Of a stretch of DNA of 64,000 nt, positions 1,415-59,052 are shown piece after piece. Both the position numbers and the translations under genes were made by a program. The DNA comes from Isurus oxyrinchus (taxonomy: Eukaryota): contig JANJGN010000034.1 in the NCBI GenBank assembly GCA_026770705.1, positions 5,580,001 through 5,644,000 of the forward strand, written 5' to 3'. Below the pieces are notes generated by a model. It saw only the letters and a program-made list of their open reading frames with translations, was not told the DNA's origin and searched no databases. The stretch's first letter is position 1. The number at the start of each line of letters is the position of its first letter.

Positions 1415-1441
1415 AAGAAAGATTGCTGGAAAAAGATATAG
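1415..1441 (+). CDS. Micro-exon 1, class B, 27 nt: (E)ERLLEKDI
   Basis: ttctcctccctggtacag|AAGAAAGATTGCTGGAAAAAGATATAG|gtaaaa; the first residue assumes the upstream exon ends in G. Confidence 0.8.
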   Translation, partial: KKDCWKKI

Positions 1442-1521
1442 GTAAAACACTCGCAATTTAATTTGAGTTGAGGTTTGAAAGAGTTTTTTTATTTACTGAG
1501 CCGAATGAAGCCCTTTTCTAG

Positions 1522-1541
1522 TCAAAACGATTTTGACAAGG
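1522..1541 (+). pseudogene. Frame-broken class C-like micro-exon (20 nt); pseudo-exon or 1-nt assembly error
   Basis: ccttttctag|TCAAAACGATTTTGACAAGG|gtgaaa, 80 nt after a class B exon; one extra A would give a 21-nt exon reading VKNDFDK. Confidence 0.45.
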
Positions 1542-2290
1542 GTGAAATTATTATTTATTTATGTATTTGATTATGTTAATTGAGTAGATGATCTGTAAAT
1601 TTGTTTCAATGAAGTGGAAGTTCCAGACAACCTTTATTCAAAGTATTCATTGTGGGTACAAAGGATATGCAACGTAAAACCTGAACTGATCATTGGCGCA
1701 ATAAAGGCAAGCTTCAGTTCCAATCTATAATTTGTGCTTTTCCCAAAGACATATACGTCTCTTATGGCCTTCTGAAACTCATTCCTAAGACATTCCTAAG
1801 TTAATTACTTACTGATGGTTTATCTTGCCATCCAATCCCAAGTGAGGGGCAAGGAGGAATACGTCTCAAGTCTACCTCCGGCAAAACATGAATTGGTCCG
1901 TTGCTGTGGACATGATTATGATAAGTACTCCAGTCATCTAACCTCCAGAGCTATACCCTCCCACCCCCCCCACCCCCCCAGAATATATTTATTAATAAAC
2001 TAAGTCATGAGTTTAGAACAAAATTTTTTTTGCACTTCAGGTGGTGAGGATATGGTGATAGCTCCATAGGGGAAGTGGAGGACTAGTTGTGAAAGCTATA
2101 TGAAGAGTGAATCTGATTTTTATTAATGGAAGGACATAATGCAAGCATTTACAGAATGTTAAGAAGGAGGAAGCAAATGCGGACGATAAATATTCTTGGA
2201 CAAGATTGACGTAATATCAGATGGCTATGCCGTTCATTTTTTATATGATTATATGTAAATCATCAAAATATTTCTTTACTTGTTTTACAG

Positions 2291-2326
2291 AGCTCGCGAA
2301 AATGAAACATGCCCTCAATGACGCAG
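2291..2326 (+). CDS. Micro-exon 2, class A, 36 nt: ELAKMKHALNDA
   Basis: tttacttgttttacag|AGCTCGCGAAAATGAAACATGCCCTCAATGACGCAG|gtgaag. Confidence 0.88.
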
Positions 2327-3829
2327 GTGAAGAAGGGCCTTTAAGTGCATTTTATATGGAACACGAGTCATATACATTAGTTCCTTAGTAAATCTGTGTT
2401 AATAATTGTCGAGTTGCAACAGATTTGTCATCCGTTCGCCATCTTAACAAGCACACTTCTGACGACCACATGATGTGAAATAAAGCTTACTGAAAGAAAC
2501 GCTCTGTGTATATATAAGTAAAAGGCGGATGTTTGAAAGCGGCACAGGAGCAGAGAGAAAGTCGATGTGCATAGAAAAAAAAACTGAATGTGATAATCCA
2601 TGCATTTGGATTCATGAGGCACAGAGACGTGCGAGGACGCCACTGTGTCTGCCTGAGTTTTGGTGATTGGTGGGGAGGTTGGGGCGTTGGTTTAATTATA
2701 TGATTGGGATTTGGATAATGGTAGAGTAAAGATATAGAAAGGCAAAATATCCTGAAATTTGTACAGCAGAACTTCCTTGATATGTATTTTTTGTTACAAA
2801 TAAAAAGGAAACATTTCTGTGCCTGGTGCTAGAGAATTCATTTCCGCAGTACAGCAAGTTTCATAGTTGTCTTTGATAAGAACGATAAAGGTATTAGAAG
2901 TATTCTATGTGTCGTAGCGTTGAGGAAAGAAAATTAAAACTAAAGCAGCACTCTGCATTGGAAAAGGGTAGAGTTAAGGAGGCTCAAGGAGATCTGATCA
3001 TGGCAAAATGGAAACAATCATGAGAGCAGAAATAAGTTCCAGTCCAGTTATTGACTGTCAGCATCCGTGAAGAGAGAAACAGACTTACAAGGGTTGTGAC
3101 TTATGACCAGAAATCGAAGAATGTTTTGAAAAAAGCAGAACTAGAACAGATGAAGGGATGATAGTTATGGAAGAAATAACATGAATGGTTGCAAAACGGA
3201 TGCCAACAAGATGGAAAGATCAGAAAAGAAAAGGTAACGGTTCCCGACTGAGGAGGAGAGGGATTATGAATGAGGAAGAGAAGGTGGTGAGAAAAAAAAA
3301 AATCAATGGTGCTCATCAGGAGAATTTTAAAACAGGAAACTGCACCAAACACAGCAATTCAAAAGCGATATTGAAGAGGGGGGAACAATGTGACCAAGGG
3401 AGAATGAAATATAAGTTAGCAGATTTCTTAACCCGGTAATTGTCTACATGTAAATAGCCTACGTTTAGTAAGAAGTGGGGAATGCCTATTAGGAGAAATC
3501 GGTTTCTTGGAGGCGTGGGGCAGTGCTTGGACATTCAATGTGCCAGATGTTCTGGTATCAGGAGCACTGATACAACAAACAAAAGTTGTGTTTTCCATTA
3601 GGAGCAATCGGAGGCCCAGACCAGAGCACAGGTGATGCCTTTGGCCAGGAAGGCCACACGTCCAATAGGCTGATTGGCATCCCCTGGACATGGCGGGTCT
3701 GGCTCTTACACTGATGCAACTGTTAGGGACCTGTATTCGATAAATGATATGGAACCAGAGGTTTAACATATTATGATTGCACTCTGGTATATATATTCAT
3801 CTCAGTGCATAATAGTGTCACTGAACCCA

Positions 3830-4885
3830 GTACACAATGTACATGCACTCACACAACCAAGCAACTCACACAAACCATAGTCAACAACACACACACCCGC
3901 AGCCCTGCCTTATCAACCTATCCTACTAACAAGCCAGAACCAATTTCACCGAAATAGACACCCACTGATTCAAACACCCTTGAAACCCCGAAATTTGATC
4001 AGCTACCAAACTCACCCAGCCAGCTGACCGGACATGGGCTCAATATTTCTGGACTGACACTAATATCTACTGAGCCTGCTAAACTCTGTCCTAAACAAAG
4101 TACCCAATAGGTCCAGGATAAAGGCTTGATCTATGAACAACCACCACACAATCAGAATAACCGTTCTTCCTGAACCCGAGCAGCCTAGGGCTGTGCCCCG
4201 ATGGCTTTATCCTCCAATGGTGTGAATACTTCCCAGATCCGAGTGGAGCTCCCTGTGTCCCGATTAACTCATCACCCACCCTCACCCTTCTCCACACAGG
4301 AATATCACTCCAGACTCAGTTCCTGGAAAGTTACGATTCGAATAGCAACACCTGATCATGACTTAATCGGCCTGAAATCACTCGCTATTCTAGCCTAGGC
4401 AATGATCCCACTTAACTCACCAAAGATCCCTCCCTGGCCCCTCAATCACTCAATCATACACTCACAAAACTGTAAGCATACATATTCCGCCTCCCACCTA
4501 TTCAACCACTAGCCAGGACATGGCTACGCACCACTGCCACGGTTGGAATAAAACCTGAACCACACGTGGCCAGCTGGCGACTTGTCTGAAAAGACCTTCT
4601 GACCCCGCCTCACATAATTATGCCTTGACTATGTCCGAAAGCAGCCCACAGAACCAACAAGATTTGCTCCCTTGCCCGTATCCGGCTACCCTTGTCCCTA
4701 CTTTATCTCTGTTGACTGGCCCTGTGACCCTCCGCTCCAACCATTTCGTTACCTACCCACCAGATTACCTACCAAGCCACACTCACTCACATTCAGCCAC
4801 GCAGTAACACACCGACTCATTCACTGAAAGACATTAGCTCCCATCCATTCACTCACTCACCCAGTCAAATACCCATTCACTGACC
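3830..4885. repeat. C/A-rich low-complexity tract with degenerate ACTC/ACCC motifs
   Basis: Strand-biased composition, e.g. actcactcacattcagccac and cattcactcactcacccagtc; no credible ORF. Confidence 0.45.
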
Positions 4886-6105
4886 CACTGAAATCTTTCG
4901 AGTCCCGTAAAGTTCCGACTGAACATAAAATTTATTGTCATAACTAAATTGATGTGCCTTGCGCGTGTTTCTTCTTTAGTGGTGTCCTGTTGCTCTGCTG
5001 TGCTGAAGCATTGTAGAGGCAATTTCTTGAACAATTTCAAAATGGTGATGCAGAAATATTTGCAGTCAGCAGCGATATACCACGACATACAGCCCCCACG
5101 ATCTATTTCTCCCCGACCTCATTAAACCCCTTCACGGCCCAAGGTTTTCCTGAACATCTTACATCCAGCATTATTGATTAATCATTTCCGAAATTCTTTG
5201 CATCAGTTGTTCATTATAGTTTCCGAGGGGAGCAAATGGAGGTATGGATGGATAAGATCGAGAAAGATGTGTTGCTTCCATGACCTTTTTGCTGCACGCA
5301 TGAGGGCACACATATTTATGCCTGTACCAGAAGCACAGGCAACATAAGGAAGGAGGACTTCTACTGAATGTACCGATTTGTAATTACTCTGAAGCCACAA
5401 TGGTACGGAAGGCAGAAGATTAACATAATTTCTCATGCAGTAGTTGCAGTTGAACGTCCAGTTCTGGGCATCATACATTCGATAGAGAAGCAATGCCTCT
5501 GAGAACATTTGTTGACACTTATGAGGCTTGATCTTTCCATAGCTTACTTTAGTTGACATGTGAGACGAGATCATCTATGCTTGTTTTACGATCAGCAATA
5601 AATATTACCGGGAGAGTAATAGCTATAGAAGAGCATGTCATGGTTTGAATGAACACTTGCTGGAAAATTATTTCTGCTGACAAAATCAAGGGAAGCTGGA
5701 GAACACGTTAAATTAATTGCCAAATGTACCAGGGGAAATAAATAGAGGTGTTGTCAGTGCTTTGCAGCTAACAAGCATGAATTAGAATATATCATTTCAA
5801 AAGTCAATGACCCTCTATTCACTCGGAATTTTTAATGGTGAATTAAGAAGCTACTTCAAGGGAAAGCTGTTTCACTTTGCAGAAAGGCCGGGGAAATGAG
5901 TTTATTAGTCAGATAATAAAAAGTTTGAGCACAAGCTCCTATCGGAGAAATCCAGCTTTCAGTGCTGTACCAGGTTATTAAAATATGCTTATATCAATAT
6001 TTGTATCGTGGATCGTCTCCTACTTATCTTCTTCATGTATGGATCATGCATCTTGCTTGTAAAACAAAATATCATTACATTGACATAGCTTGTATTCTTC
6101 CTTAG

Positions 6106-6132
6106 AAGAAAAGTTAGGCCGATGTGCGACAG
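6106..6132 (+). CDS. Micro-exon 3, class B, 27 nt: EEKLGRCAT
   Basis: ttgtattcttccttag|AAGAAAAGTTAGGCCGATGTGCGACAG|gtaaat. Confidence 0.87.
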
Positions 6133-6230
6133 GTAAATGCAGAGAAATTGATGCCCGTGTTCACTCTTACCTTGTCCCATGGACATGATTATCCTGATTA
6201 ATCATTCTGTGCTGAACTTGATTTTCACAG

Positions 6231-6251
6231 TTAAAGGTGGTTCATCAGATG
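6231..6251 (+). CDS. Micro-exon 4, class C, 21 nt: VKGGSSD
   Basis: ttgattttcacag|TTAAAGGTGGTTCATCAGATG|gtgagt; 98-nt intron from exon 3. Confidence 0.85.
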
Positions 6252-7269
6252 GTGAGTATTATTAAATATACTTCTAGCACTTCAAATAAATTACCAATAT
6301 GGATTACCTTTTCACACTTGACAGTTACATCATAATTTTATAAATAATCACAAGACTAATTCGACTTTAGAAGTTGCGTAAGAGATGGTTCAGGTGAGAA
6401 ATGGTAAAAACAAAAAGCTGTACATTACTTGCATCACTACTTTGAATACACTCGTTGACAACAATATGATGAAAGTGCTAGTAGATTCAAGGATTCAAAT
6501 TTGTTAAAAAAATCGATTACTGAATGATGCCATTCTGTTTTCCTTGTTTTCATCTCGAGGGACCACCTTAAATTTTCAATCAATTCGACGTTCCAATTAT
6601 TAACATACATACATCACTCCACAAGGTTTTTTTTAATATTATTGAAAACAAATTCATTTTACTAATACTATATTTCCCATAACGTGACATTTTAAACCCT
6701 AACATCTGAGAAATTTCAGCAGACTCAGTTATGTTTTCTTCATGCAACGTACAATCTCCCCCATAATTTCCAGATCATTCAGTGCGTTTTTACTTCTCCT
6801 TGCTTCAAAACAAGTACACTACTGCTCTTTGCAAATTCCTTTGCTCCTCATTTTCTTTTCCCTGTTTTCTAGGGGATACAGTTCCTTGAGATTCTTCCAC
6901 TATCATTGACCCATTCTACATATTTGAGCACCACAAGATTGCGGAGACATAGTTCATGAATAGACTTCATTTCCTTCTTGGTCAGTGGCATACATGCCTG
7001 ATTATGGCTGTTGGCCGATCTGACAGTACATTCTATTTCGTTTACTCACCACCTACTGCAGACTCAGTCTAGCAGCTATGCTTTAGGACTTGGACAGTTT
7101 GGACAGTATTAATGCCACCAGGCTTACTCTTGGAGATTGACATCGAAGCCTCCCACCCAGAGGATGTGCTGTACCCTAGCCACCATCAGTGATTCCGCCA
7201 CGTGACTTTCAATGTTGAGGAGTGCTGATTGATTAGCTGAAGGAGGGCTGTATGCCATAATCAGGAGAA

Positions 7270-7545
7270 GGATTCCTTGCACATATTTGACTGGAAATTA
7301 AGAAACTTCATCGGGTCCGCAATCGATGTTGAGACCAGGTTAAGGAAGGCAGATTTTCTTTTCTAAGGGGCAGTAATCAACCAGTTATGCTTTAAAACAT
7401 TCGAGAATCGTTTCAATGCCTTCGAATTCTACATTTCGTTGAAATGAAATTCCACCAACTGACTTGGATTTAAACCGGGAGTTCTGCAGATTATTACTCA
7501 GGATCTCTAGTTCACTAGTCCAGCGAAAATACCAATGTCATTGCT
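7270..7545 (-). mobile_element. Degenerate SINE copy
   Basis: Reverse-complement similarity to the copy at about 62295-62595 (gaaggcagattt, ttcactagtccagcg motifs). Confidence 0.55.
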
Positions 7546-7649
7546 TCTTTATCTCTGCTGTATCTGTGATAACGCACGCACACATAAAATATTCACCCAA
7601 AACACTAAATATTGGGCACATTGTAACATATGTGCAGGTTTAGGCCATC

Positions 7650-9065
7650 AGGAACCTTGAGACTGCTTTACCATTGGACTGGATCAAGGCTGTTCTTCAA
7701 TCTCAATAGCAATTTCCCGTAATGTTCACATGTCCCTTCATGTCATCGGTATCTATAAATCTATCAACGCCTGCGTTCAACACTTTCAATGTCTGGGCAT
7801 CCACAAGCCTCTGTGATAGAGAATTCCAAAACTCACCACCCCGTGACAACAGATGTTCCTCGTGATCTCTGTCCTAAGTGGATTAACTAATTTCCTGGAA
7901 TTCGTGTATCAAAATCCATCTGGTTTAAATATTGCAATGAAGTTTGAAAGACGGTTAAACAGGGGGAATATCATTTGTGCACCAATCATATTGAACACGT
8001 AACAATTCATTGCATCCTTTGCTCAGGAGGACAAAAGTTAGAGCAAAATTCACGACGTGGTTTCGCAAAAGCTATATTAAATTGCAGCATGACGTCAATA
8101 TTCCTGCTGGAAATACCGTTGCAATAAAGGCTAGCAAACCATTTGAATTCCAAATTGTGTGTTGCACCTGCTTGTGACTTACGAACAAGAACAACTAGGT
8201 CTCATTGTTCAAATCAAAACTCCCATTCTCTCTCCATGCAAGATGTAATCTGCATCTTTATTTCTCCTACCAATATGCATAACATTACATTGACACTTGT
8301 TATATTCCATCTGCAAAATTTTTGCCACCATATGTAGCCACTCTAAATCTCCAGAAAGCCTCCTTGCATCCTCTACAAAACTCACATTCCCAGGAAGTTT
8401 ATTGTCAACAGTTGATATGAAAATATTACATTTTGCAGGCGCATCCACATCATTGATATCTGTTGTCAATAGCTTGCATCCAAACATAGTTACATGCAGT
8501 GCTCACAATCAGAGCTGCCAACATGCGATTCTTCCTTTTGTATGTACTCTCCTCCTTCTGTCCGATTATAATTCTGAATCCTCCGATATATTTCCCCCAA
8601 ACCCTTGTGCCACAACTTTGCTTACGAACATCCAGTGTGGGACCTTGTCGAAAGACTCCTGAATACCTAAATGCACCACAAAACTGGATTTCCCTAATAA
8701 AAATTGCCAGCAACGTTCTCAAAATACACGGAGAGGTTTGTTAAACATAATTTCCCGTTCGTTAATCCATGCTTACACTGACAGTTTCACCATTGTTTTT
8801 GAAGTGCCCAGTTTATGAGATGTTTATTATATATTTCAGCATTTTTCTTATTCTAATAAATGGCTGACAGGTCTGTAGTTCCTTCCCCCGCCGCCCCCCC
8901 CCCCCCCACACCCACACACACACACACCCCACACCCCCCCTTGCTTATTTAATAGAGGGAGTACGTTTATTAACTTAATATCTGCAAGCACCTTTCCAGA
9001 ATACATGGAGTTTGAATGATGATCGCCACTGCATTCATTATCTCTAAAGTAACCCCTTTCAACAC
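7650..9065 (-). mobile_element. Decayed CR1-type LINE, RT region to 3' end
   Basis: Minus-strand fragments INVLPLLNK...RNYRPVS and KCQCNVMHIGRRN match CR1 ORF2 motifs; frameshifted. Confidence 0.8.
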
Positions 9066-9494
9066 TCAATCACACTCGTCTCTTCGCTCCCTCTAAATCA
9101 CCGAATAGCCTATCTTGATAAAAATGTGAGATCTTCGGGATTCCTCCAAACAGAGAAAAAAAAATCGAGCCGTTTCAAAGCAACCCTTTGAATCTCAGAC
9201 GCCCAGGAATAACATATTTTCCTAAAGTGGTTAACAGCTTTTCTAACAGATTAACTTGCTAAAAAAAACTTACATTTACCTTTACATTTCCTTAATCAGC
9301 AGAACATAAATCAATAATTTAAACTCCAATTCCGTCATCAAAGAATTTGCCGAGATGCCTTGCTGCAAAGTCGCTCCTCTGCAAGGGTCTCACGTAGCCA
9401 GCTATAATCCTTCTATCATCATTCTGGCAACACAAAAAATCCATTTTGAAATTTAATTACCTCAGACCTCCCTACAATTCACTTACATGAGACG

Positions 9495-10095
9495 TTATTT
9501 ATTTTTCTCGTTCACGGGATGAGAGCGGCGCTGGCTCGGACCATATTTATTGTCGATGGTTAACTAACCTTGCAGATATGATGATCAGACACTTTGAACT
9601 TGCACAATACAGTGCTGATAGGAAGGAAATTCCTGCGCTTTGACCAAGCTAAATTGAACGAACTACGACATACTTACATATCAAGATTGTATAATTTATT
9701 GTGGAATGTACAATTGTTGTGTTGTTCCCATTGCATCTGTTACCCTTGTTCTTCTTGGTGGTAGAGTCGAGCGTTTGTAATTTTTTTTCGACAGAAACCT
9801 GGGATGCTCCTGCATTGCATTTTATAGATGGCACACACTGCTGCAACTGTGTTCCAGAGGTGGAGTTATTGAATGTTTAAGCTGGTGGATGGGGTGCCAC
9901 TCAAGCCGAATGCTTTGTCTTGGATGCTGTCGAGCTTCCTGTGTCTAGTTCCAACAGAAGTCATCCAGCCAAACTGAAGTACTTCCAACAGGCTACTGTC
10001 TTGCGCCTTGCAGATGGTGGGCAGGGTTTGTGAAGTAAGGAGATGAGTCTCTCTCCATCGAATGCCAAACCTATATTCTGTTCTTGTGGTGACAG
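9495..10095 (-). mobile_element. 3' fragment of a second LINE family (CR1/L2 group)
   Basis: Minus ORF LLTSQTLPTICKAQ...KLDSIQDKAFGLSGTPST; related copies near 13350, 41335, 43980 and 54254. Confidence 0.75.
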
Positions 10096-10440
10096 TATGG
10101 AACATCCTTACAATCCTTAATGGGCTCCATTTTGCACTTTTACTCAAAGTTGAATCAAAAAAGGAGCACACAATCCACGATGTGCTGGTTAATATATCTG
10201 CAATTGGCTATTTTGTTAATGCCTCCTTAGGCAATAAGTGCATTATGGCACTTGCAGCCCCACGAGTTTTTGAATTGGTCTTATTGTCAACATGATGAAT
10301 AGGGCCATTTGTCCATCTTGCAATCGTGGTGCAGAAATTTGGAGAATCAAGGTCATCCTGCATGCTTATGTTTGTGTTGATCAGTTCAGCCCTCGTTGTA
10401 CTTCAGACAACATCATGAATGGTCATAATACAGCCAACGT

Positions 10441-10587
10441 CGGGGCCTGGCCTAAGTAGCCAAGTGGTTATGTTACTGGGCTTGTAAACCCAAGAGCAAG
10501 AGTTCAACTCTCACAATGGCAAACTATGAAACAATGTAACTTCATCTGAATAAGGACAGATGGAAACGTGTTTGTACTCGAAAGAGT
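10441..10587 (+). mobile_element. Short tRNA-Thr(UGU)-like SINE or retroposed element with 12-bp target-site duplication
   Basis: A-box-like TAGCCAAGTGG, anticodon-arm-like CTGGGCTTGTAAACCCAAG, B-box-like GAGTTCAACTC; flanked by TACAGCCAACGT at 10429-10440 and 10588-10599. Confidence 0.8.
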
Positions 10588-11419
10588 TACAGCCAACGTT
10601 GGTCCTGAAAATTGCCCATTGTACCTGTAATTATCCTGCAAGTGTGAGGTGTCTCAAACCTTTGAGCAACAGGCTGTTATTACACAATATAAACGTGAGT
10701 GGTATTCTCCACGAACAGGATGCTGCAATCAGGCCACAAAACATGTTCTGCCTATTGCAAATGGAGTTGTTTATAAATCGCTGGCTGATGTCATGTCAGG
10801 CATATAGGTCGTATGTCCCAACCATTGACCAATTCTATCAAACAATATGTCCATTCAGCTATTTCAACAGTGAAAATAATGATCGCGCCCAAGCAGCACA
10901 CACTTGCAACACTCAGAACATAGTCTCCACATCCCGTGGCCTGCTAACAATCCTGATTGCACAAAGAATTACACTCAAAACAAATGCGAGATTGTCAGTT
11001 GTTCTCTCTTTGTGTCTCACTTACGCATGATAGAAGCCAAATTTTTCACGAACAGGGCTCTGTCGTTTGCAGAAGGAAAGAAGAGGTGCCGCTTTTTCAT
11101 ATAAACAAAATCTTATGGACCAGTCATTTCCTGGTTCACAGCCCGTGGCAATGACTTGCCCAATCAGGTTCGATCTCTCCGGTTTGCATTTGAAAAAAAA
11201 TCTGGGCCGCTAACTTCTTAATACTGCATACTCCATGGTGAAAATTCCATGTGCCCAGTCCCCAACTAACCAGCTTTCGTTTCTCATGAAGCATAATTAC
11301 CTCTTTCCACTATAGTTTGGTAGTGCCTTCTGATCTACCCAGATGTACGCATGACAAACACTTTTGATGGTATGTCACGGCTGTTCAGCAATACTCAAAT
11401 TAAATATTAACATTCCAAG

Positions 11420-12010
11420 GGGTGTTAAGAAATAACGGAGGGAAGAGGCATGCAGAAATTTTGGGAAAAGGGCCATGCAGTGGACCTAGCAAAAATGTTC
11501 GTTGAAAAAGCTGTCATATACTCCATGGTCTGGAACACCGTCTGATATGCCATCATATTCTCGTACTTTATAAGTCCAGTATACTGAAACTTAAGTTGTA
11601 AAACGTTCACAAAATGTGCACCAGGAAGGATCTGTTTATCTGATAAATGAAAGGCTGACATGGGATGGTATAGTGCATTGGAGCATAGCGAAAATGTCGG
11701 AAGAATACACATCGAGTACACAATTCCACCCGTTAGGAAGAACAAAGTTAGGATAGGTAAATCTTAGATATTCTTTAATAAATCTAATGACATGTTAAGG
11801 ATAACTAGCTGTTCAACAGAAATTAGTTCACAAATTGAATGCCTGTCCTGTGGAACTTAAAGCTAAATGAAGCCAAATGCATCCAAGTGGATCCTCCACA
11901 AGAAATTGAAGGGCAAAATCACAAAGTAGGTTTGGTTAAGGTTACATTGAAGGGAGATTGTAATGGGTATGTAAATGGCATAGGCTAATTAGGCTGTATA
12001 GCTTTTTTTC
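11420..12010 (+). mobile_element. Highly decayed CR1-type 3' remnant
   Basis: ctttataagtccagtatactgaaac...gttcacaa and tggaactta...gaaattg resemble the CR1 ORF2 C-terminal region seen in other copies in this window. Confidence 0.4.
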
Positions 12011-43130: not shown

Positions 43131-43149
43131 ACGTCATAGCGTTTTGAAA

Positions 43150-46905: not shown

Positions 46906-46997
46906 GTAAGCAAGACCACTATCTGAGACGGTAATGGGTGCAACAATTATCATTATTGTTTTGATGACGTTCCATCTATTGTCCTTCATAATCTCAG

Positions 46998-47400: not shown

Positions 47401-48033
47401 GTGAGAAACATAATTGGCTTCAAAAAATAACTGTTGTCGTTTTATAGTCAAGTAAAGTGAGTGCAAGCCTGTTGATCTCGAATCGTAGAGATACATTGAA
47501 CTTACTTTGAACAACACACACATTACTGAAGTGAGCCGTGTAGACAATATTGCAAAATTTTGGATGGACTGACCGCGCATTGGTTAAAACCTATATTGGA
47601 AATAATCGGTGTTTATAAAGTTGCTGTCGATTGTTCTCGCTCATTTTTTTTAAATCCCAAAGACAGTTACAAAAAATGTATTGTGAAAATTAAGGCATTT
47701 TTTGCGGCCTTCGCATAATATCATATATACGCAATGGAGATATTTTAGTAACTACGGCTTTTTGAGGCACCAGGAGAAATATAGAGGCAGGGCAGTAATG
47801 CCGAGTTGATCGGAGAAGGCGGTGAAGACAGTTACTAACAACCTCCTTAATCATGAGGGCTTTTCTGTTGAACGATTAGGCCTTAACTATGGAAGCAGCT
47901 TTAAACAATGGTTCAGATCCTGCAATTGTGGCAGAAAGAGCTAAGTTCAAGTTCTATTTCACGAAACAAAAAAACAATATAGGTTGCACGTCCACTGCAG
48001 AAAACAGGCAGTGTTACACCTCTGTTCATTCAG

Positions 48034-48054
48034 CTTTTCAACTGGTACTGCATA
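48034..48054 (+). CDS. Possible additional 21-nt micro-exon: AFQLVLH
   Basis: ctctgttcattcag|CTTTTCAACTGGTACTGCATA|gtaagt; frame- and heptad-preserving but compositionally unlike the other exons. Confidence 0.3.
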
Positions 48055-49379
48055 GTAAGTTCACCCCGCCTTCCTAGTTGGATGCAAATCATCCCATTCT
48101 GTTGCTTCAAAGATGTGGACGATCGTTCTGGCTTGTGTCCTGATTGACTTGGTTCTCTCAATGAGTGCATGTATTATGTATATTTCTGCATATAAGGAAA
48201 TAAATGGATAACTAGATCCATAAATAAGTAAATAAATAAATAAGTACGCAAGTCATGATGGCTGCCCTTTCTGATTGTTGGACTATTCTGTGATTATATT
48301 ATTTGCCATATTTCATAACTTATAAAAATAACAACAGGCCAAATGTGTGCCGTTTATTGAAAAGTTGTTTGGAGATCACCGAGACTGCAAAAGACATTCT
48401 TGTGCCTCTTCCTTCCCTTACTGAGGAACTAGGTTGGTCGGCAATTGATTGGTAGGCCGCATACAAAAGCCAGAAAATTATTTTAACCTGTGTGCCCTGT
48501 CACATAAAATCTCGTGGGATATAAGCAAAGTATCATGCCTGCTATCATGTTGTTCACGTCAGTTCTAAACCAAGTGGATAAAAAAAAATGAAATGAAAAC
48601 AACGTGGAAAATTGAGCAACGATTCTCTGTTCTGCAATGTCCCTGGAGTAAAATGTCTAGTAGAGATAGTGTCAAATAATAGGAAGAAGATGTCATTGTT
48701 GTTAAATGAGGAGTACATAATGCACAAAATACCTGGCAAGTAATTCCAGGCTTTTCTTCAAAATTATGCCAAATGTTTTTTTTGAAGTTTTCCTGAAAGA
48801 TTTGCGATGCCTGGTTCACCGCCTCATGCTAAAGGAAGAACCAAGGAGAGAAGCATACTACTAACTAGATTAGTATTGTCACAGTGGTTAATGAGTAAGG
48901 CATTTGTAATGAGTTGCAAATGCAGAGACTTCTGCCTCATGGGTGAAACATCAACAACACAGCTTAGTATAAGCTTGGTGACAGATAGAAAAGAGAACAG
49001 TTGAATTTGTCTTTAGTGCATGCTTTCTACCTCAACATCGCTGCAACAGATTATCCATGCAACTTGAATCTCATAAGTTGTTGCTTCTGCCTGCAGTCAC
49101 TCTAAGGTGCGGCAAAATTCTATGTTCCACATTTAAATATGGGTACCAAAACAGTTCAGTAGTCATTACAACGCGATGAAAGTGGACCTATGGCTGACTA
49201 CAAAGTATTTTATTTTCGTAGCAATTTGATCAGCTGGCCAACTAAGTCCATTAACGAATATGATTGTATGACCCGACCGAAAATAGCCATCTGTTACTTG
49301 TTCCATGTTATTATTCCACAAAGTGATGACCCTAGTTCTGCTAATCACACGTTTTCATTTTTCCCCTTATGCCAAGAGC

Positions 49380-49650
49380 AGCAAATGCTTTAGCCCTTAC
49401 CGTTCTAGTTCACTCTCACTTTGTTGTTTGACCATGGCATATTTCCCAACCTCTCTTTAGCCCCCACATATCGTTCATCATTACTCGTGCTTCAACTGCT
49501 CCACCCTCCGAAACAGTATGAAGGTACCCACATTTCTACTTCTATGTAGCGCTGCAGAAGAGTTATACAGACTCAAAACGTAACTCGGTTTCTCTCTCCA
49601 CAGGTATGGTCAGACCAGTTGAGTTTTTGCAGCATATTATGTTTTTATTT
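49380..49650 (+). repeat. Dispersed repeat fragment (retroelement terminal-repeat-like)
   Basis: gactcaaaacgtaactcggtttctctctccacag...gagtttttgcagcatattatgttttt; a related degenerate segment lies near 20140-20220. Confidence 0.45.
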
Positions 49651-50573
49651 TATTATTGCATAATTGTTGGATAGGAAGTCGAACAATTGTCCGTTGCAAA
49701 TCCAGGCCGTGGTTCTGATGTGGCAAAATTCTAAATTTCTGCATAAGGGTTAAATGGAGGCCTTTGGGAGCACTTCTGCCTGTTAGTCAGAACGTTACAG
49801 ATGCTCCCCCCACTCCAAGACAAAGAAAAGCAAAACTGAGGTGGAAACACCATTGTTCTTCGAATGGAGGACTAAATCTCAGGTTTTTCAGTACTAGCAA
49901 AATATGTTCTTTATTTTTTTCAAGTGAATCTTTACCGACAGCTTGCACGCCATCTATGTTGCAAGCAAAGGTTTGCCGATCATTTGCGATCTTCCCTGGA
50001 ATCAGGCATATTATCTTAATCAAGCAACATCTCTAAAACAGGTTGCGTGTTATTGCTGCTGTACAAAATTTCTGTGTCCCAATCAGATTTCGAGTTTTCA
50101 GCATTGTGAATTCGGTGCTTTGACCTTGCCTTTAAGAAACAGATGGAATTTGCTTTGGGCCTTGCAAGCTTCATCACAGTATTAAGTTGTGTTATTTCAA
50201 ATGGCTCAATTTTTTTCCCATGTAAATGTCCATTTACTTCACACCGGTTCAATTATTTTCCCATATGAGTTTCAAGTGCCATGACAATTACACTGAAATT
50301 AAAGCATTGGCAATCACGAATTAGCTGGATTGCAGATCATCCCTTGACGCACATGCTTTGTACAATAAAAATAAAAGACAAGTGGAGTTGCATTAAAAAC
50401 ACTGACCCAATGTTTTCGAGACGTTGAGGTGCAGGTGGATGCAAATCTCATGGCAAACATTTAATTCACTTAATTTTCGATTGCTCTGACAAAACGTTGA
50501 GTTGCACAGGGTCTTCAAAATTAATTCACTTCCTGTTGCACCACATTTTATCATGTTCGTTTCTTCTTCCCAG

Positions 50574-50600
50574 AAACTGACTTGGTTAAATGCCAGTTGG
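50574..50600 (+). CDS. Micro-exon 21, class B, 27 nt: ETDLVKCQL
   Basis: cgtttcttcttcccag|AAACTGACTTGGTTAAATGCCAGTTGG|gtaagt. Confidence 0.88.
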
Positions 50601-51479
50601 GTAAGTGTGTTTTTACATTCATTTTCTCTCGAAAGTTAAAGCATTATGTGTCAACAGTTCGGGATTCTATGAGTATGCATTATAATTGGGCCATGAAATG
50701 ATGATTTTTAACCTATAACAAGGAACACGAGCTCCAAAAAACGTGTGTAGGAAACCTACTTCATTGGCCGGTTCATCTATTCCCGTGGCCTTTGGAGTAA
50801 CTTGAATCGATCATAATGGTTAAGGGTTCCTTGATATCTTCCGAAAGCAATTGAAAAGAAAACAATGTACATTTCTGATAGTTCTCTTTTTCTTCAAATG
50901 TCACCTTTACTTCTTATTTGCTTGGATTGAGTTCCCGATTTCCACCATACATTGTGCGAGGTGTGTGTACAAAATTCTCCCCTTCGTGCAACAACTTTAT
51001 TCAGATTCAAAACATTCGTTTTGGGCGCCAGTAGCAGCAAATAACTCTGCTTTATTAGATCCATTATCTTCTCTTATTACGCAAAGAAGCACAATTGGAT
51101 CACCTCTCAATATTAAACACGCAAAGGAATGCAAATAAAATGTATTAACACAGTCCATACAGCCAAAGATGAACATTTACGTTAGCTGTGACTATAGATG
51201 AAGAGAAAACAACGTTCTATCCACAAATAAACTATAGTATTAAGTAAAATACTGGTAGAAGATTTAGTAATCACTGGGCTCAACAGCTAGCCATTTCGAA
51301 TAATTCCCCGTGATATCATGATACGATTGAAAGCATGGGGTACTGCAAAGGCCATTGGTCTGGACAGCATTCCGCCAATGCCACTGAGTTCATCTCCTCC
51401 TGAACTAACCGCACACTTATGCAAAGTTTTTCAGTCCAACCACGCAATAGACACTTATAGGTAATTTGGGAGATTGTTA

Positions 51480-52377
51480 AGGGACGCACTATACATACAA
51501 GCAAAAAAGCAGCACGATCCCGACCCGGTCAATTACCGCTACACGAGTCGAATCTCGATCTTTGTTAAATTTGAGAGATATTTCATCGGCAGCGCTATCA
51601 AGCGACACTAACTCGGCAATCACCTCTTGAGTGACGCACAGTTTGGGTTCCGCAAAGACCCTCTCATTTCCTGACCTCATTACATCTTTCATCGAAACAT
51701 GTACTAAAGAGCAGAACTGAATATACATGAGACTGCCTGTTCTTGACATCAAATCATCATTTTACCGAGGGTGGCATCAAGGAGCAACAGAAGAAAAAAA
51801 AATCTCTATTCAATGCTTATCAGAGGAAAACTCTCCACTGGTTGGTGTAATAACTAGCACCAAGGAAAATTATTGTGGATCATGGAGGTAAGTTAGCTTA
51901 GTCCAGGCATATCGAAGCAGGATTCCCTAGGGGTACTTGTGTCTTAGGCCCAAATGATTTCAATTGTCTCGTAAATGACCTTCATTCCATCATAAGATGA
52001 GAACTGTGGATGTTGGCAAGTAATTAAGCAAATTTTATCACCATTCACGAATCCTCAGAAACTTAATTCCCAGCACCCATATGCAGCCAGACGTGGACAT
52101 TATTGAGGCTTGGGATTAACAGTGGCCAGTAACATTCACGTCATGCAAGTGCCATTTATAACCATTTCAAACTATCCAAAACCTAACCAACTCCCCTTGA
52201 CCTCCAATGGCTTTAAGTTCGATGATAACCCCCAGGAGCAACAATATTGGCTGTTTCAACTGACCAGAAACTGAACTGGGCCACCAATTCACATACTGTG
52301 GTAACAAGAGCAGGCCGGAGGCAGGAAGTTCTGTGGAGTGTAACTGAAGCCCTGATTCCAAATGCCGTCCCCCATCT
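51480..52377 (+). mobile_element. Second-family LINE RT region, 5' half (split by a CR1 insertion)
   Basis: ccggtcaattaccgc (P.NYR), cagtttgggttccgc (QFGFR), cttgacatcaaatcatcatttt (LDIK..F), DQKLNW motifs. Confidence 0.8.
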
Positions 52378-54253
52378 GGCACGGAGGTTTACAAAAGCAA
52401 CCTGCAGAGCAAAGAGTGGATATTTGAAAGCTCTGGCTGGTAAAATATGTAAAATCCCAAGATATTCTATATGTTCATCAATGTGAAAAGGGTATTCCAG
52501 GAAAGAGTGCTGTCCATTGGGGACCAAGGGGACAATCTATGGTTGGAGCGAGAGGCCAAAAATCGAATGTAGTACGATTGCTTCATATCCATCTTCACAC
52601 AAGAGAATAAGGATGACTGTATAGAACTCGGGGATTGAGAAAGGAAGTTATTGCACACTTTGAAATAAGGAGTGGCAAGGTATTGGTAGTGTTGGCACGC
52701 TGAAATGAGATCATATCTTCAGATCCGGATTTTGTTGGTCCCAGACTGCTGAGGGAGACCAGGGAGGTTAGCACAGGGTTTTCTGAACCATTTTTAAAAT
52801 TCCCATCTTGCTACGGGGTGATGCCAGAGGACTAGAAAAAAGCTAATGTGGTTCTGCTATTTAAGGATGGTTGTAGCGATAATTTCGCGAATTGCGGACC
52901 GATGAGTCTCACGACATTGGTAGGTAAACTATTGGAAAAAATTCTGAAGGAGAGATTATATTTCCATGTAGAGAGGCAACGTTTGATCAGGGATATTTAG
53001 CATGGCTTTGTCCGAGGGAGGTTATGCCTAAATAATTTTATTGAAAATGTTGAGGAGGTGACCAGTTGTCTAGATGAGGATATTGCATTTGATGTAGCTT
53101 ATATCGATTTCAGCAAATGCTTTGATAAGTTCCATCATGGGAGACTTATAAGGGAGGCAAATGCACATGGAACACGGGGTGTTTTGATAAGGTGGATTCA
53201 AAATTGGCTTAGTTGAAGGAAGCAGAGAGCGTTGGCAGAAGGATGCTTCAGTAGTTGGAAGCGAGTGTCCCGTGGCGTATCAGAGTGATCGGTGTTGGGT
53301 CCCCTATTATTTGTTATTTATATAAACGACAATTATGACTATGTGGGGGGAGAATTAGTAAGTTTGCGGAAGACACAGAGATTGGCGGGGTGGTTAACAG
53401 TTAGGATGAGTGTCCTGGGCTACAGGGAGATATAAATGGGATAGTCAAATTGGCAGCTAAGTGGCAGATGGAATTTAATCCTAAGAAGTGTGAGAAATGT
53501 ACTTTGGGAGGCATAATTTTACAAGGAAATATTCAATGAATGGCAGACACTAGGAGGTTCTGAAGAACAAAGGGAAACTGGCCTGTGTTTCCATAGATCA
53601 CTGATGAAAGAGTGCCATGTTACTGGAGTTTGAAAAAGGCACTTGCCCTTACCCAACGAGGCATAGATAACAAAGGCAGAGAGGTCAGTTTAGAGTTATA
53701 GAACCTTGGTGAGGTCACAGCTGCTGTTCTGGTCGGCATATTATAAGATGGATGTAAATGCAAAATTATAGGGTGGAGAGGAGATTCACCAGTATATTGC
53801 CTGTGAAGAAACATTTAAATTATGAACAGAGGTTGGATTGACTTGTGTTGTTTTCGTTGGAGCAGAGAAGACTAAGGGTTGACCTGATCTATGTGAAGAA
53901 GATTTTAAGTGGCATGGACAAGGTGGATAGGGAGCAACTACTGACCTTATTCTATGGTCGATTAACGAGGGGATGCAAATTCAAATTGAGGGGCAGGAGG
54001 TTTAGGGTGAATGTGGGGGGAAAAAATATTTTATTTGCAGAGAGTGGTGATGGCTTGGAATCCGCAGCCTGGGAGGGTGATGGAAGGGGGTTGCCTCACA
54101 TCCTTTATAAAGTTCCTGGATGACCAGTTGACACGTTATAAAATTCAAGCTTATAGGCCAAATGCCAGTATATGGGATTACGTAGGTCGGCCAGGTGTCC
54201 CTCACATGTCGGTGTAGGGTCGCTGCTGCAATGGATTATTCTGTGATTCTATG
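52378..54253 (+). mobile_element. 5'-truncated CR1 LINE nested in the second-family LINE
   Basis: RT motifs DFSKCFDK, GPLLFVIYIND, SKFAEDT; C-terminal FSLEQRRLRVDLI; 3' tail ATTCTGTG-ATTCTATG; ATCT on both sides. Confidence 0.9.
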
Positions 54254-54745
54254 ATCTACAAGGCAATGCGCAAGATTGTGCTCGATTGCTCCACGCTTTC
54301 TTGGAAGACTGCCACTCCAACAACACGCAAGGAGGTCGGCACCTTCCACTATATATCCTTAAACTAGATTGGCATCACATCCATAACCCTCAACTTTCAC
54401 TCCCACTATCAGGGACAGTGGCTGCAGCGCATTCCAACTGCACGAAGCTCTGCTGTAACTCCCCAATGACCCTTTGGCACCACCTTCCAAAATCATTATT
54501 TCTATTACCCAGATGGAAAACGGCATCAGATACATGTGAAAACCAACACGTGGATGTTCCCCTCGAAGTCACGCGCCACCCTCACCTACCACAGTTTCTC
54601 AGAATATTGGATCTCCTTTCCTAGCAGCAATGCTGGTGTTCCTGCAACAATTAGATTGCAGCAGTTCAAGAAGGCAGGTCACTCTTACCTCCTCAAGGCT
54701 ATTAAGGATGGGCAATAAAAACTTACCTAGCCAAGACGCCCACAA
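54254..54745 (+). mobile_element. Second-family LINE, 3' half
   Basis: Resumes with atctacaaggca (IYKA) and ends in the family tail ttaaggatgggcaataaaa...ctagccaagacgcccac. Confidence 0.8.
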
Positions 54746-56263
54746 ATTAACAAATTAACATGAAACAAATGAGGAACAAATTTAAAAAATATATATATAC
54801 ATGAGTCGGTGTCAGTTCTCTTAACTCAACTAGCGCAAGTTGCACTAAATTATCTAATTCTAGCGCAGCCAGTTCAAAAACGGAAGCCTTATCAGCCTCG
54901 CTTTTTTCTCTTTGAAAGACAGGGCTTGAGGTTGATCTTATAGGACATTTCAATTGCTTAAGGTGTTACGTTAAATATAAAATCGTGATTATATTCCCAG
55001 CTTTGTTAGAAACCGGAGCTATGTTTCATGAATGTATAATATAGATAAGTATAACCCATAAGGTGTACGGGCAGCTGGGGAAGTTTTGAACTTTGCAGCT
55101 TAAGAATGAATAGCCTGGAATTATTTAAAGCTAATATAGACATCCATATCAGACAGGAAGTATCAGAAGTTTCTGTTGAGAACAATAGACATCGAGTGAT
55201 CACCGGAGATGTGAATAAAAAATAGGGATATTAATAGAAATATTAAGCCTAAAGGTCATATTATCACGTTGTTTAACCAATGTGATTCGACATATTTGTG
55301 AAAAATGTCCGAATGAATTCTGTGCAATTTCTGTTTTGTGATCAACTATGCATGTTTCCAAATCCTTACAACTCAAAGGCCTACAGCTTAAAATATTGTT
55401 AAATGTGATTAGTTTCAGAAAAACTATTATTCTTTTGCAATGTTATTTTGGCTTTGCTTGCATTGAGCTCTGCAAAATGAAAATAACGTTAGTGTCCTTG
55501 TTCTGATGGCAATGGTTCGGGAAATATGACAAGCCTAGTAATAGGGCTTGTGGGTCAATTAAATATGACAAACGTTGCATGTGGTGACATGACACACAAT
55601 TCTGAAAATTCTAGACGGGTCACTGCCACATGACTAACGCCTCGTTATCATGTTACTATACAAAAAGTGAAATGAAATATCAAAATAATTGTGATTCTTT
55701 AAACCTTACGCATCTTACATATGATACAACGATCAATATTACATTTATAAGGTGCAGACTTTCAATTTGCAATTGCCCTTGCAGGTCAGCAGTTTTTTTT
55801 TTCTGGATAATCACACGAAATGTGGTTCTTCTTGCAAATGATGAGATTTAACCTTTTTTTGGTGACTTCAATTTAAAACGCAATTCAAAATAGAATTTTA
55901 AAAGTCAAGCAGCCAGCAAGTTTTTTTCTGGTTTTGTGTTGGGTTAAACAATACGAGTACCGCCTGCACATTCATGATTACTTATTCAAATTCTCCTTCT
56001 CTAACTCCGCCTTATGTTATCTATTAAATCGCGATTCAAAACTGCCCGCACCAATTTTGAAAGAAAAATGATGGCTCAAGACAGCTGGCAACAAAAAACA
56101 ATTAGCACACGTGGGCAACACCACAAAATTTGCTGTGCATGAACATTTTCAGCCCTACATCACGTCAAAATGTTAAAGGCATCCTTATTATGCTTTCTTT
56201 TCGTGAACAACCCTAGTTTACACAACGGAAGTTGAGGCATTTCTGCTTGCTATTCTTTGACAG

Positions 56264-56299
56264 AAAATGAAAAACTGAAGCAAGAATTGATAAAGAAAG
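56264..56299 (+). CDS. Micro-exon 22, class A, 36 nt: ENEKLKQELIKK
   Basis: cttgctattctttgacag|AAAATGAAAAACTGAAGCAAGAATTGATAAAGAAAG|gtgaaa. Confidence 0.87.
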
Positions 56300-57118
56300 G
56301 TGAAAAAATGAGAATGATGTGGATGGTTAACTTCAAGACTTGAGCCATATCAGTTTCCTTTCTGCAGAAAAGTGGCACGTACTAAAATATGCAGAGTGTA
56401 AATTATTTGTAATGTTCAATACTGCTTTTTGTCGCAAACTGATTGATTGCTAATTAAACATATTAATAGAAATCAATAGTAGATATACTGTATTGAATAG
56501 AAGTTATACAAAAGTCTAATTTTTTTTTATTTTGACCTATCATGAAGCGAACACTTGTTTTTAATGTTTTTCACTCGCTTTGTCACAAACGATGCTATGG
56601 ATACAACGAGACTCTACAATGTTCTCCTCTCTGGAAAACCTCCTGCACTGGCAATATGATTGTGTAAACCAATAGCTCTGCTGCATAAATCCTAACTGAA
56701 GTCAAATTTTAATCATTCTGATCGCCTGTGCAAAGATGTGAAAGATGATTCAATGCTACAAATCTACAAGATATAAGGATCTCTAATATACTGGCATTAT
56801 ATATATACAGATATTCATTCCACTGCCTGGGCTCTCTGCTTTGCAATTATTTCCCTTAACTTCCCCGCATTCCCCACTCTTGCTCATTCTTGATACCCTT
56901 AAGTCTACATCTGTGATCAATATTTTTCTTAACAGACATGGCAATATGCTGTTATCAGAAAATATTTATTTCATGCCACTCCTGTGAAATGTACTTGAGT
57001 GCAAATTTTGCTAAAAGTCGCAGTAAAGTTAGAGTAAAAGAAAAAAAAAAATATTTTATTAGTATTTCATTAGGAAATAACACGATTTAACATTTTCGAT
57101 ATGTTTTCACATATTCAG

Positions 57119-57145
57119 GCGTGGATTTGAAAGACGTGTTCCCAG
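57119..57145 (+). CDS. Micro-exon 23, class B, 27 nt: GVDLKDVFP
   Basis: gttttcacatattcag|GCGTGGATTTGAAAGACGTGTTCCCAG|gtaatg. Confidence 0.8.
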
Positions 57146-57299
57146 GTAATGGATCAACTAATAAATGATTATAATTTGGCCAAAAGAAAAGAGCATCACT
57201 GTAATTGCTACTCGACAATCATAGAATAGTAAAATGACGCAGAAGGGAAAGGGTTTTGTAAGCGTATATGCAGGTTACCAAGGAAAATGATATGAAGGC

Positions 57300-58760
57300 C
57301 TTGCAGGGCATCTATTTTCGTAATGATACTCAGGGTGTGACAGGGAGGGCAGAGTGTACAAACATAGGAAACAGCAGCATGGTATTCTGAGTAAAGTAAA
57401 TGAATTAACAACACAAGTAGAGATAAACGATTATCAAAGTATACATATTGCAGAGATATGGTTACAAGGCGATCATAGGTAGGAGGTAAATAGTCAGGGG
57501 TTATGTGACTATTTTAAAGGGCAGGCAGGAAAAAAAAGTGCTGTGTGGTACCTTTGTTAGTAAAATTTGGAATAAGTCCCAAAGCAAGAAACGCTCCTGG
57601 GACGGAAAATGTGGAATCCATACGAGTGAATGTAAGAAATAACAGGTTGAAGAAGACACTCTTGGGGGAACTCTATAGGCCCCTGTCAGTGGGCGTAGTA
57701 TAGTCCAGAGGACAAATGAGGAGATAATGATTTGAGTAATATGTTGCGAATTCAACCAGGGATCAGGCTATTTTAGATCTGATAATGTTTAATGAGGCAG
57801 CAAGGTTAATACATGATCTCAGTGTCAAGGATATCGTAGGAAAGTGTGAACATAATACTTTAGGATTTAACGTTCAATTGGAGAGTGAGAAACCTGGGTT
57901 GGAAAATAAATGTGCACATCTTAAATAAGGGTAATAACAAATTAATGAGGGCACAATTGACTCCAGTGGACTTAGATTCATTGTAACAGAAATGAAGTCT
58001 GCTGAACAATAACAGACTTTTAAGAAAATAGTTCATGACTCTCCAAAAATATATCTATACCAGTTTGGAAGACGTGTTCAAGGAAGGGGATGACCCAACC
58101 ATGGTTCAACAGCAAATTTAAGGACAGGAACAAATTGAAATAGAAGAAAACATATAATTTAGCTAAATTTGGAGGTAATCAGAGGATTGGGAAAGTTTCA
58201 AAAGAAACTACAAAATAGGTCTAGAACAACAATAAAGAGGGATAAAATTAACATTAAGGGTAAACTAGCAAATAATATAAAAACAGCGTGTAAGGGTGTA
58301 TTGAAATATATGTATATATATAGAGGGAGAGAGTGGCCTAATAGAGCATAAGCACCTTAGAGAATGAAGCAATAGCAAAGATTATGGGGGACCAGGAAAT
58401 GGCAGATGAGTTCAATAAATCCTTTGCTTCAGCCTTCTTAGTAGTAGAGGCGAATGGTATTCCACAAATTAATAAATTTTCAAGGGCGAATAAGTGTGTG
58501 GGGTTGAGGGGGTGGGGGGGGGGGGTGCGGGCGGGGAGTGGTGGAGGAGATTAATGCAATAACTAGCATAAGAGACAAAGTTCTGGGCAAACGAATGGGT
58601 CTAAAGGCTAATAATTCCCTTTGGCCTGATGGGTTTCATCCTAGCATATTGGAGGTAGTAGATACAGAGATATTGGAAGCAATTGTAATAATCTCCGAAT
58701 AATCTTTTGCCTCCTGTAAAGTCCCAAAGGGTTGCAGAACGGCCAGTGTAATAATCCGTT
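57300..58760 (+). mobile_element. Decayed CR1-type LINE, endonuclease/linker region
   Basis: attgcagagatatggttacaa (I.E.WL), ctctataggccccct-like YRPP, attttagatctgata (ILDL), ggcctgatgggtttcatcctagc (GPDG.HP). Confidence 0.75.
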
Positions 58761-59025
58761 TTCCTTTTCTTTGCGAATAGACCCTGCCCTCCCCTTCTCC
58801 TCTCTCCAAAATGCCAGCCTCTACAACAACCTCCCTTTTGAAGGATTTTTTAAGCAACCTCTTGGAGCAATATGTCACTGAGTTCATATTACAATATATT
58901 GTCCGCTGTCAATGTCAGTTTCATGGCGCCATGGTGCCCTGTGCTCGGTTGTTATATAGCCTGAATACCAGCAGTTATGGCTTTGCTAAATGGAAAATGC
59001 AACAATGTAATAATTTTGTCTTCAG

Positions 59026-59052
59026 ATCGACAGATAGGAGATACAGAATCAA
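59026..59052 (+). CDS. Micro-exon 24, 27 nt: DRQIGDTES
   Basis: taattttgtcttcag|ATCGACAGATAGGAGATACAGAATCAA|gtaacc; weak donor. Confidence 0.6.

Follow-up and report, generated by a model that had tools for sequence, protein, structure and literature searches.

A purifying-selected micro-exon array in Isurus oxyrinchus, probably part of a giant coiled-coil rod and B30.2 gene of a chondrichthyan family

The window analysed here is a 64-kb stretch of the Isurus oxyrinchus genome (4.98 Gb), positions 5,580,001-5,644,000 of contig JANJGN010000034.1 (C34), which contains no long coding frame of note. An earlier note on this DNA had proposed a hidden micro-exon gene made of 24 AG/GT-flanked segments on the + strand (eight of 36 nucleotides (nt), thirteen of 27 nt and single ones of 18, 21 and 24 nt; 702 nt in total, stop-free in phase 1). 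The micro-exons of the window are confirmed as real. They are best explained, with a probability of roughly 0.7, as an internal part of one giant gene of a chondrichthyan family, which encodes a short N-terminal leader, a very long coiled-coil rod and a C-terminal B30.2 (PRY-SPRY) domain. The exons continue on a single strand over at least 1.07 Mb toward a phase-compatible B30.2 exon, and in the gene models of relatives a like rod is joined to a like B30.2 domain. A very large, selected micro-exon gene of this rod and B30.2 family is real, and the prediction of an under-annotated gene, here chondrichthyan and built of symmetric phase-1 micro-exons, is borne out; no description of the family was found in the literature searched (titles and the starts of abstracts, with subscription journals mostly outside).

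A generic splice-site scan, the scores of which are blind to peptide content, reproduced the 24 segments. On the + strand of the window it returned 9 matches at 27 nt and 9 at 36 nt, compared with 2 and 2 on the - strand, a mean of 0.85 matches at other lengths (maximum 4) and 0-5 in 30 dinucleotide shuffles. When 264 kb were scanned, the numbers for 27/36 nt were 38/30 on the + strand and 6/7 on the - strand. The control proposed with the original list, shuffled sequence and the opposite strand, therefore gave no comparable number of segments. A leave-one-out exon model applied to the 264 kb scored at least 12 in 83 of 1,668 candidates on the + strand, in 2 of 1,781 on the - strand and in 0-3 in five shuffles, although this test is partly circular because the seeds were picked by hand. 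Likewise, the absence of stops in phase 1 follows from the way the segments were selected; the other two frames contained 73 and 89 stops in approximately 875 codons.

A paralog of the window array is located about 1.09 Mb downstream. In a first comparison of 21 exons, length, frame and 84/84 splice bases were kept in the paralog, with 10 of these exons having been located via patterns. An independent test used the 16 exons that had not been located in this way, of which 13 were covered by the paralog. These exons differed at 32/363 bases, compared with 3,262/18,103 in the introns (P = 1.5e-6), and retained 52/52 splice bases, compared with 1,221/1,938 for intronic AG/GT; the pN and pS values were 0.068 and 0.183, respectively. 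On this comparative evidence the micro-exons are coding sequence under purifying selection. Thirteen of the 24 originally listed exons could be compared, and 12 of them keep length, frame and both splice sites; the segment at 11343-11369 became doubtful, since its paralog has lost the acceptor and differs at 9/27 bases. Later reads of two uncovered exons, outside the 13-exon totals, upheld 57119 and failed 11343. Two exons were absent from the list, 22167-22193 (with a GC donor) and possibly 31680-31706. The candidate at 31329 was rejected, its paralog having no donor and a stop, as was the one at 21766, which lacks a donor in the paralog.

In the regular stretch of the array the exons follow the order 36-27-27-27 nt, giving 39 residues per unit. 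This four-exon unit replaces the 36/27-nt module previously suggested, which was perceived because the unit is degenerate inside the window, with slots shortened or missing. The strongest hydrophobic period was 3.54 residues in the regular stretch, in agreement with 39/11; taken over the 89 exons called, it was 3.59. Half of the rod residues are charged, and the junction codons encode mostly Glu (45/87) or Asp (19/87). Among 88 joined exons, 84 are 27 or 36 nt long and one is 21 nt; the exon model favours these two lengths, and the generic splice scan gives the same length peaks. The median intron is 1,688 nt long, and introns inside the array reach 15.6 kb. The introns between B- and C-type exons are often only about 90-110 nt (window 46906-46997; in the upstream flank near -13797, -8155, -1783 and -35659). 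Tandem NAGNAG acceptors occur at 1415/1418 and 6106/6109, and their alternative use would cut one codon from the exon.

The array was read whole across C34:5,460,369-5,721,881 (-119.6 to +141.9 kb relative to the window; 89 exons called). It continues on both sides of 1415 and 59052, which thus do not mark the limits of the gene, and no first or last exon was present in the 264 kb read whole. The 234-residue product first proposed amounts to only about 1/20 of the array. A SPRY scan gave one match inside the cluster, and the related B30.2 exons on C34 found with that SPRY protein lie at 2.709 (-), 3.474 (-), 4.817 (+), 6.396 (+) and 7.497 (+) Mb; the next-best relatives are two on contig C21. 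The PRY-SPRY exon expected downstream is present 752 kb past the window end, as a terminal exon with a phase-1 acceptor (C34:6,395,819-6,396,339, +), and the last 27-nt exon stands just before it (C34:6,395,161-6,395,187). A single exon pattern had 62 matches in the genome (13 in the control), namely 46 in C34:2.84-7.17 Mb, 4 beside the C21 pair and 12 elsewhere, and all 46 on C34 point toward the next same-strand family B30.2 downstream. Two earlier patterns were less clean (299 versus 732 in the control with one mismatch allowed, and 34 versus 40), so that just the rows on C34 served as leads. Family exons were contained in 9 of 11 5-kb samples from C34:5.325-6.215 Mb, while nine samples of 2.5-3 kb from 4.88-5.29 Mb comprised three with clear exons, two with a weak 21-nt candidate and four with none. 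There is consequently good support for an array that spans 1.07 Mb (5.325-6.396 Mb) on the + strand. It probably extends up to 4.88 Mb, about 1.5 Mb (1.51 Mb) in all, and the most upstream family exon (C34:4,881,641) is a possible member of the same gene. Extrapolated from a tally of sampled pieces (0.24-0.38 exons/kb), the array would hold approximately 360-550 exons and 3,500-5,400 residues, which is an upper frame and not a count. The link from the window to the B30.2 exon is drawn from strand, phase and sampling.

In this genome, C34 carries five arrays of this kind and C21 probably two. The latter are two more probable family genes at C21:89.67-91.35 Mb, with the 4 exon-pattern matches and B30.2 exons at 89,722,233 and 91,348,269, all on the + strand; they lie on the same contig as the large SPRY cluster and the IgC exons of canonical butyrophilins. 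Within the array, a tandem unit of about 28 kb in about 10 copies fills C34:5.89-6.17 Mb. Recent internal tandem duplications are visible in both paralogs, at 5.89-6.17 Mb (units of about 28 kb) and at 7.10-7.17 Mb (about 20-22 kb), and because the unit sizes differ the rods appear to have lengthened independently.

The terminal domain is most closely related to RefSeq models of skate, catshark, chimaera, electric ray, basking shark and epaulette shark, named TRIM39-, TRIM58-, TRIM69-, A33-, BTN- or BTN3A1-, golgin- and nuclear-pore anchor-like. Related models that combine a B30.2 domain of the same clade with a rod (XP_042192744.1, XP_038671249.1, XP_055510696.1 and the XP_069775384-428 series) are automatically named fragments of about 200-1,697 amino acids. 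In a quick, midpoint-rooted tree of 89 domains (4 labelled BTN rows; about 95 other fetched domains left out), the family B30.2 domains and the five from C34 formed one clade (SH-aLRT 100), in which every named member is chondrichthyan; it is separate from the BTN and TRIM domains and does not group with BTN. The best match of the 88 joined exons among 190 fetched proteins was the catshark rod and B30.2 protein P0166 (188 bits), compared with at most 110 bits for within-exon shuffles and at most 169 bits for exon-order shuffles (n = 30 each), and the match kept an E value of 3.5e-12 under composition correction. The identity of the gene is based on its terminal exon and on local comparison with the 190 proteins. 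Two consecutive catshark models (P0193 and P0191) overlap the single, longer sister-species model P0166, which indicates split annotation. In a ray relative, the RefSeq isoforms are set apart by in-frame blocks of 8, 8, 11, 12 and 23 residues, indirect evidence of exon skipping in the family, though not for this gene. The B30.2 domain alone retrieved no longer protein in a word-indexed search, and the N-terminal 384 residues of the chimaera protein P0035 had no match in this genome. The ESM Atlas contains clusters of SPRY proteins of 1,277-1,802 amino acids with no Ig or RING listed, two of them named as late-numbered isoforms, which may represent this family or a bony-fish parallel. One source cites a supplementary butyrophilin phylogeny with sharks and rays among its species, in which family members could be included (PMC12841164).

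The best solved-structure match of the B30.2 domain was BTN3A1, by sequence and, narrowly, by fold; TRIM7, next by fold, and TRIM58, by sequence, scored nearly as well. The AlphaFold model (pLDDT 68, moderate) did not separate BTN from TRIM. The BTN3A1 pocket is given as R412, R418, R469, H351, H378 and K393 in the cited passages of PMC4303140, and those of PMC7348870 also report H351, Y352 and W391. In the family domains, a basic residue is present at the K393 position in 13/14, at R412 in 14/14 and at R469 in 11/14, and Trp at the W391 position in 12/14; at the pocket positions 165 other domains mostly differ from the family. R418 had no match in the alignment, and the full phosphoantigen pocket of BTN3A1 is not present. 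From these residues we infer that the family head binds a conserved anionic ligand rather than sensing phosphoantigens as such.

At the N-terminus of the skate and chimaera proteins P0151 and P0035 stands a short hydrophobic leader (best 9-mer 3.31 and 2.81, best 19-mer 1.48 and 1.59, respectively, by hydropathy only), and the family B30.2 domains are poor in Cys (0.54 versus 2.33 per domain, in samples that are not independent). Leaders and few Cys lean to secretion. Given the gene, secretion is the location we would place first, at a little under even odds; a type I membrane protein bearing a V domain that was not seen and a cytosolic or N-anchored protein are each a lesser possibility, on a par with one another, and a TRIM has a very small share. 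P0035 additionally carries R-x-K/R-R motifs at residues 18-21 and 60-63, possible proprotein sites, which are not found in P0151. No BTN-type IgC exon (PF22705; 37 matches, 110/110 candidates scored) was detected in C34:2.7-7.5 Mb, the best being on C21; Lectin_C had no match on C34 among the best 150 of 615 candidates scored, and a heuristic scan of the fetched DNA for a signal-peptide exon returned one microsatellite match only. The receptor tail suggested for the window accordingly survives as one reading among several, since BTN-type IgC is absent from the cluster and the B30.2 clade stands apart from BTN and TRIM; its likelihood is at best equal to that of a form that is secreted or lacks Ig.

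A number of observations count against a single gene of this design or against parts of it. No transcript joins any two exons, so that a continuous mRNA is inferred. The region at 5.05-5.325 Mb yielded only weak 21-nt candidates and 4/9 upstream samples were empty, which leaves room for a gene boundary in this region. Reading stopped short of the 5' end, and about 64 kb (C34:4.817-4.882 Mb) are almost wholly unread; the first exon has to be sought downstream of 4.817 Mb. In the downstream flank, a B-type exon at 97059-97085 (window coordinates) has intact splice sites and an in-frame stop, so some exons are probably dead. The longest recorded relative has 1,697 amino acids, and the 24 window exons alone matched nothing among the 190 proteins after composition correction (best E 0.32). 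The search for IgV (V-set) exons scored only the best 150 of 3,319 candidates, with none found in the interval. The leaders were taken from automatic gene models and might instead represent the end of a transmembrane exon; N-glycan sequons show no enrichment, their counts giving no location signal; and Cys in the rod is no proof of secretion, because the cytoplasmic tails of BG proteins carry Cys too (PMC5938342, in the passage cited). Finally, H351 and H378 of BTN3A1 are both replaced in the family. The exon at 97059-97085 may itself be a dead copy or a truncating exon. Same-species sequencing runs at the B30.2 locus (4/5; at most 3 samples, RNA status guessed) left the exon uncovered and gave short repeat-like pieces only, which is neutral evidence, and no RNA data set was listed as containing window 45500-50800.

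Several of these observations would fit smaller genes or alternative transcription units interspersed with dead exons, where the window exons belong to a shorter rod that may not reach the B30.2 exon at 6.396 Mb, or to a super-locus with alternative terminal B30.2 exons (4.817, 6.396 and 7.497 Mb, all +). We consider this unlikely, yet it is the strongest competitor. Besides the stop-bearing exon, it can draw on the empty samples at 4.95, 5.15, 5.20, 5.25, 5.76 and 6.21 Mb, on a paralog that fits in 1.10 Mb, on the 5.329-Mb region that has no paralog match and on RefSeq models of relatives that are split into rod-only and B30.2 pieces. However, empty samples of 2.5-5 kb are to be expected with introns of up to 15.6 kb inside the array, no terminal or first exon appeared in the 264 kb, and the overlap of P0193 and P0191 with P0166 points to annotation as the source of the divided models.

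Even as a form of the one-gene explanation, a BG/butyrophilin hybrid appears rather improbable. It would add unseen 5' IgV and transmembrane exons, making a type I membrane protein with a giant cytoplasmic rod that carries the B30.2 domain deep into the cytoplasm and links the surface with the cytoskeleton or a metabolite signal. Small heptad exons followed by B30.2 are the butyrophilin layout (PMC4046983, as far as the cited passage goes), BTN3A1 is the top structure match by both sequence and fold with three pocket basic residues kept, the basic cluster after the P0035 leader resembles that behind a transmembrane helix, and two family B30.2 domains share C21 with canonical butyrophilins. Set against this are the lack of BTN-type IgC in C34:2.7-7.5 Mb, the Ig families found in 0/7 family proteins scanned, the Atlas clusters whose long SPRY proteins come closest to P0166 in features and which list no V-set, and the near-equal scores of TRIM58 and TRIM7. 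Those scores, together with the TRIM39-, TRIM58-, TRIM69- and A33-like names, could also suggest a TRIM-like E3 ligase with a hugely extended coiled coil and RING and B-box in the unread 5' end, but this is very improbable: the names rest on B30.2, the clade is apart from TRIMs, the two relatives with hydrophobic leaders leave no room for RING or B-box, and neither was found in the 7/7 relatives scanned (SPRY in all seven, most apparently 5'-incomplete; no search aimed at them was made in this genome). Chance AG...GT segments or a decayed repeat, for which the shortness of the individual segments and the failure of 11343 might speak, are refuted by the controls on strand and length bias, purifying selection and genome-wide clustering beside B30.2 exons.

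If the window is part of one giant gene, its exons would be spliced into a single chain of at most about 3,500-5,400 residues, 0.5-0.8 micrometre long as a coiled coil. The rod would be predicted to oligomerise, and at least two B30.2 heads could then bind with avidity far from the N-terminus. Since every exon is a multiple of three and phase 1-1, rod length is free to change, and duplication (of the 28-kb units) and exon skipping may both alter it. The head would bind a conserved phosphate- or sulfate-bearing ligand in a basic and aromatic pocket, on the face used by BTN3A1. A fuller version, which we regard as speculative, is that these are secreted B30.2 recognition proteins on rods of up to 0.5-0.8 micrometre, kept by cartilaginous fishes since before the chimaera-shark split; here a gene of 1.5 Mb and about 500 coding exons, exceeding the 363 of titin, would skip or duplicate 39-residue cassettes to set rod length and present a head that binds a conserved extracellular anionic ligand. 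B30.2 domains usually act as sensors in the cytosol; a secreted one, mounted on a rod and retaining part of a BTN3A1-like pocket, would be relevant to the origin of butyrophilin ligand sensing. Expression and testing of the isolated B30.2 domain should be straightforward.

In its workings the gene resembles a BG tail attached to a BTN head, yet on the features tested it belongs to neither group; butyrophilin and BG genes had been named beforehand as the closest comparison, and they remain so. Butyrophilins consist of two Ig domains, a transmembrane helix, few heptads and B30.2 (PMC4046983, cited passage), and have been reported from the MHC chromosome of sharks and rays (PMC12841164, cited passage); in this genome BTN-type IgC exons lie within the C21 SPRY cluster. 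The family shares with them a layout of small coiled-coil exons ahead of a terminal B30.2 exon, the BTN3A1 match and three pocket basic residues with W391, and it differs in its hundreds of exons, in the absence of BTN-type IgC from the cluster, in a B30.2 clade of its own and in lacking H351 and H378. Chicken BG genes likewise use many symmetric split-codon micro-exons to encode a long coiled coil of varying length with Cys in the rod; the cited part of PMC5938342 describes one V domain, a transmembrane exon, 21-nt exons in about 29-38 repeats and no B30.2, whereas here the exons are 27/36 nt, the unit has 39 residues, there are about 10 times as many and the end is B30.2. TRIM proteins with PRY-SPRY also place a coiled coil before B30.2, but the rod here is far longer and no RING or B-box occurs in the family proteins scanned. 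Enterophilins combine a long heptad rod with B30.2 and are not known to have Ig domains; they are mammalian, cytosolic and built of a few hundred residues of plain heptads. Schistosome micro-exon genes have symmetric micro-exon arrays with in-frame skipping and encode short products, of unrelated lineage and sequence, that are not known to carry B30.2, an analogy of design only. The vespryn ohanin, a venom B30.2 protein of 107 residues with a single cysteine, is extracellular (PMC12730704, cited passage) and has no rod, the likeness being by description only. The family occurs across sharks, rays and chimaeras, is fragmented and misnamed by annotation pipelines and occupies several Mb in this genome. 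If there is one transcript, its exon count rivals the vertebrate maximum known to us, and the gene offers a natural test for the splicing of hundreds of 27-36-nt exons.

Table 1. Micro-exons and candidate exons of the window (window coordinates; LOO, leave-one-out score)
Feature	Position	Strand	Remark
Whole window	1..64000	+	internal slice of larger gene
27-nt phase 1-1 exon, D type	1415..1441	+	identical in paralog
36-nt exon, A type	2291..2326	+	kept in paralog
27-nt exon, B type, Cys-bearing	6106..6132	+	kept in paralog
21-nt exon, shortened C slot	6231..6251	+	kept in paralog
27-nt segment, doubtful	11343..11369	+	LOO 6.1; no acceptor in paralog, 9/27 bases differ
36-nt exon, A type	18206..18241	+	LOO 40.2
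27-nt exon, B type	18795..18821	+	LOO 29.1
18-nt exon, shortened C slot	20889..20906	+	frame and splice sites kept in paralog
27-nt exon, D type, GC donor	22167..22193	+	exon and GC donor both kept in paralog
36-nt exon, A type	22914..22949	+	LOO 41.4; outside paralog coverage
24-nt exon	24066..24089	+	peptide identical in paralog
36-nt exon, A type	25086..25121	+	LOO 20.7
27-nt exon, B-like	26423..26449	+	LOO 24.7
Possible extra 27-nt exon	31680..31706	+	score 4.8; paralog keeps frame and splice sites, 6/27 bases differ
27-nt exon	34021..34047	+	LOO 21.6
36-nt exon	35022..35057	+	LOO 13.7
27-nt exon	35820..35846	+	LOO 15.0
27-nt exon	38727..38753	+	LOO 10.0
36-nt exon, A type	45912..45947	+	exon model; kept in paralog
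27-nt exon, B type	46879..46905	+	exon model; kept in paralog
27-nt exon, C type, preceded by 92-nt intron	46998..47024	+	kept in paralog
36-nt exon, A type	47365..47400	+	exon model; kept in paralog
27-nt exon, B type	50574..50600	+	LOO 21.4
36-nt exon, A type	56264..56299	+	identical in paralog
27-nt exon	57119..57145	+	weak score 3.8, yet kept in paralog
27-nt exon	59026..59052	+	LOO 15.7; outside paralog coverage

Other features were observed in and around the locus. A G-rich run and adjacent AAT/AAG microsatellites are present at window 30850-30909 and 60206-60297. The introns contain broken retroelement-like frames in the upstream flank (about -61460 to -60230) and at L050 and L053, which we take to be Penelope-like. 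Elsewhere on C34 there are a V-set exon with a weak PVRIG-type match (13.07 Mb) and three C2-set exons (16.39-16.51 Mb), and a dense array of split C-type lectin exons at positions 0.02-5.96 Mb of contig C43 accounts for most of the 133 Lectin_C matches.

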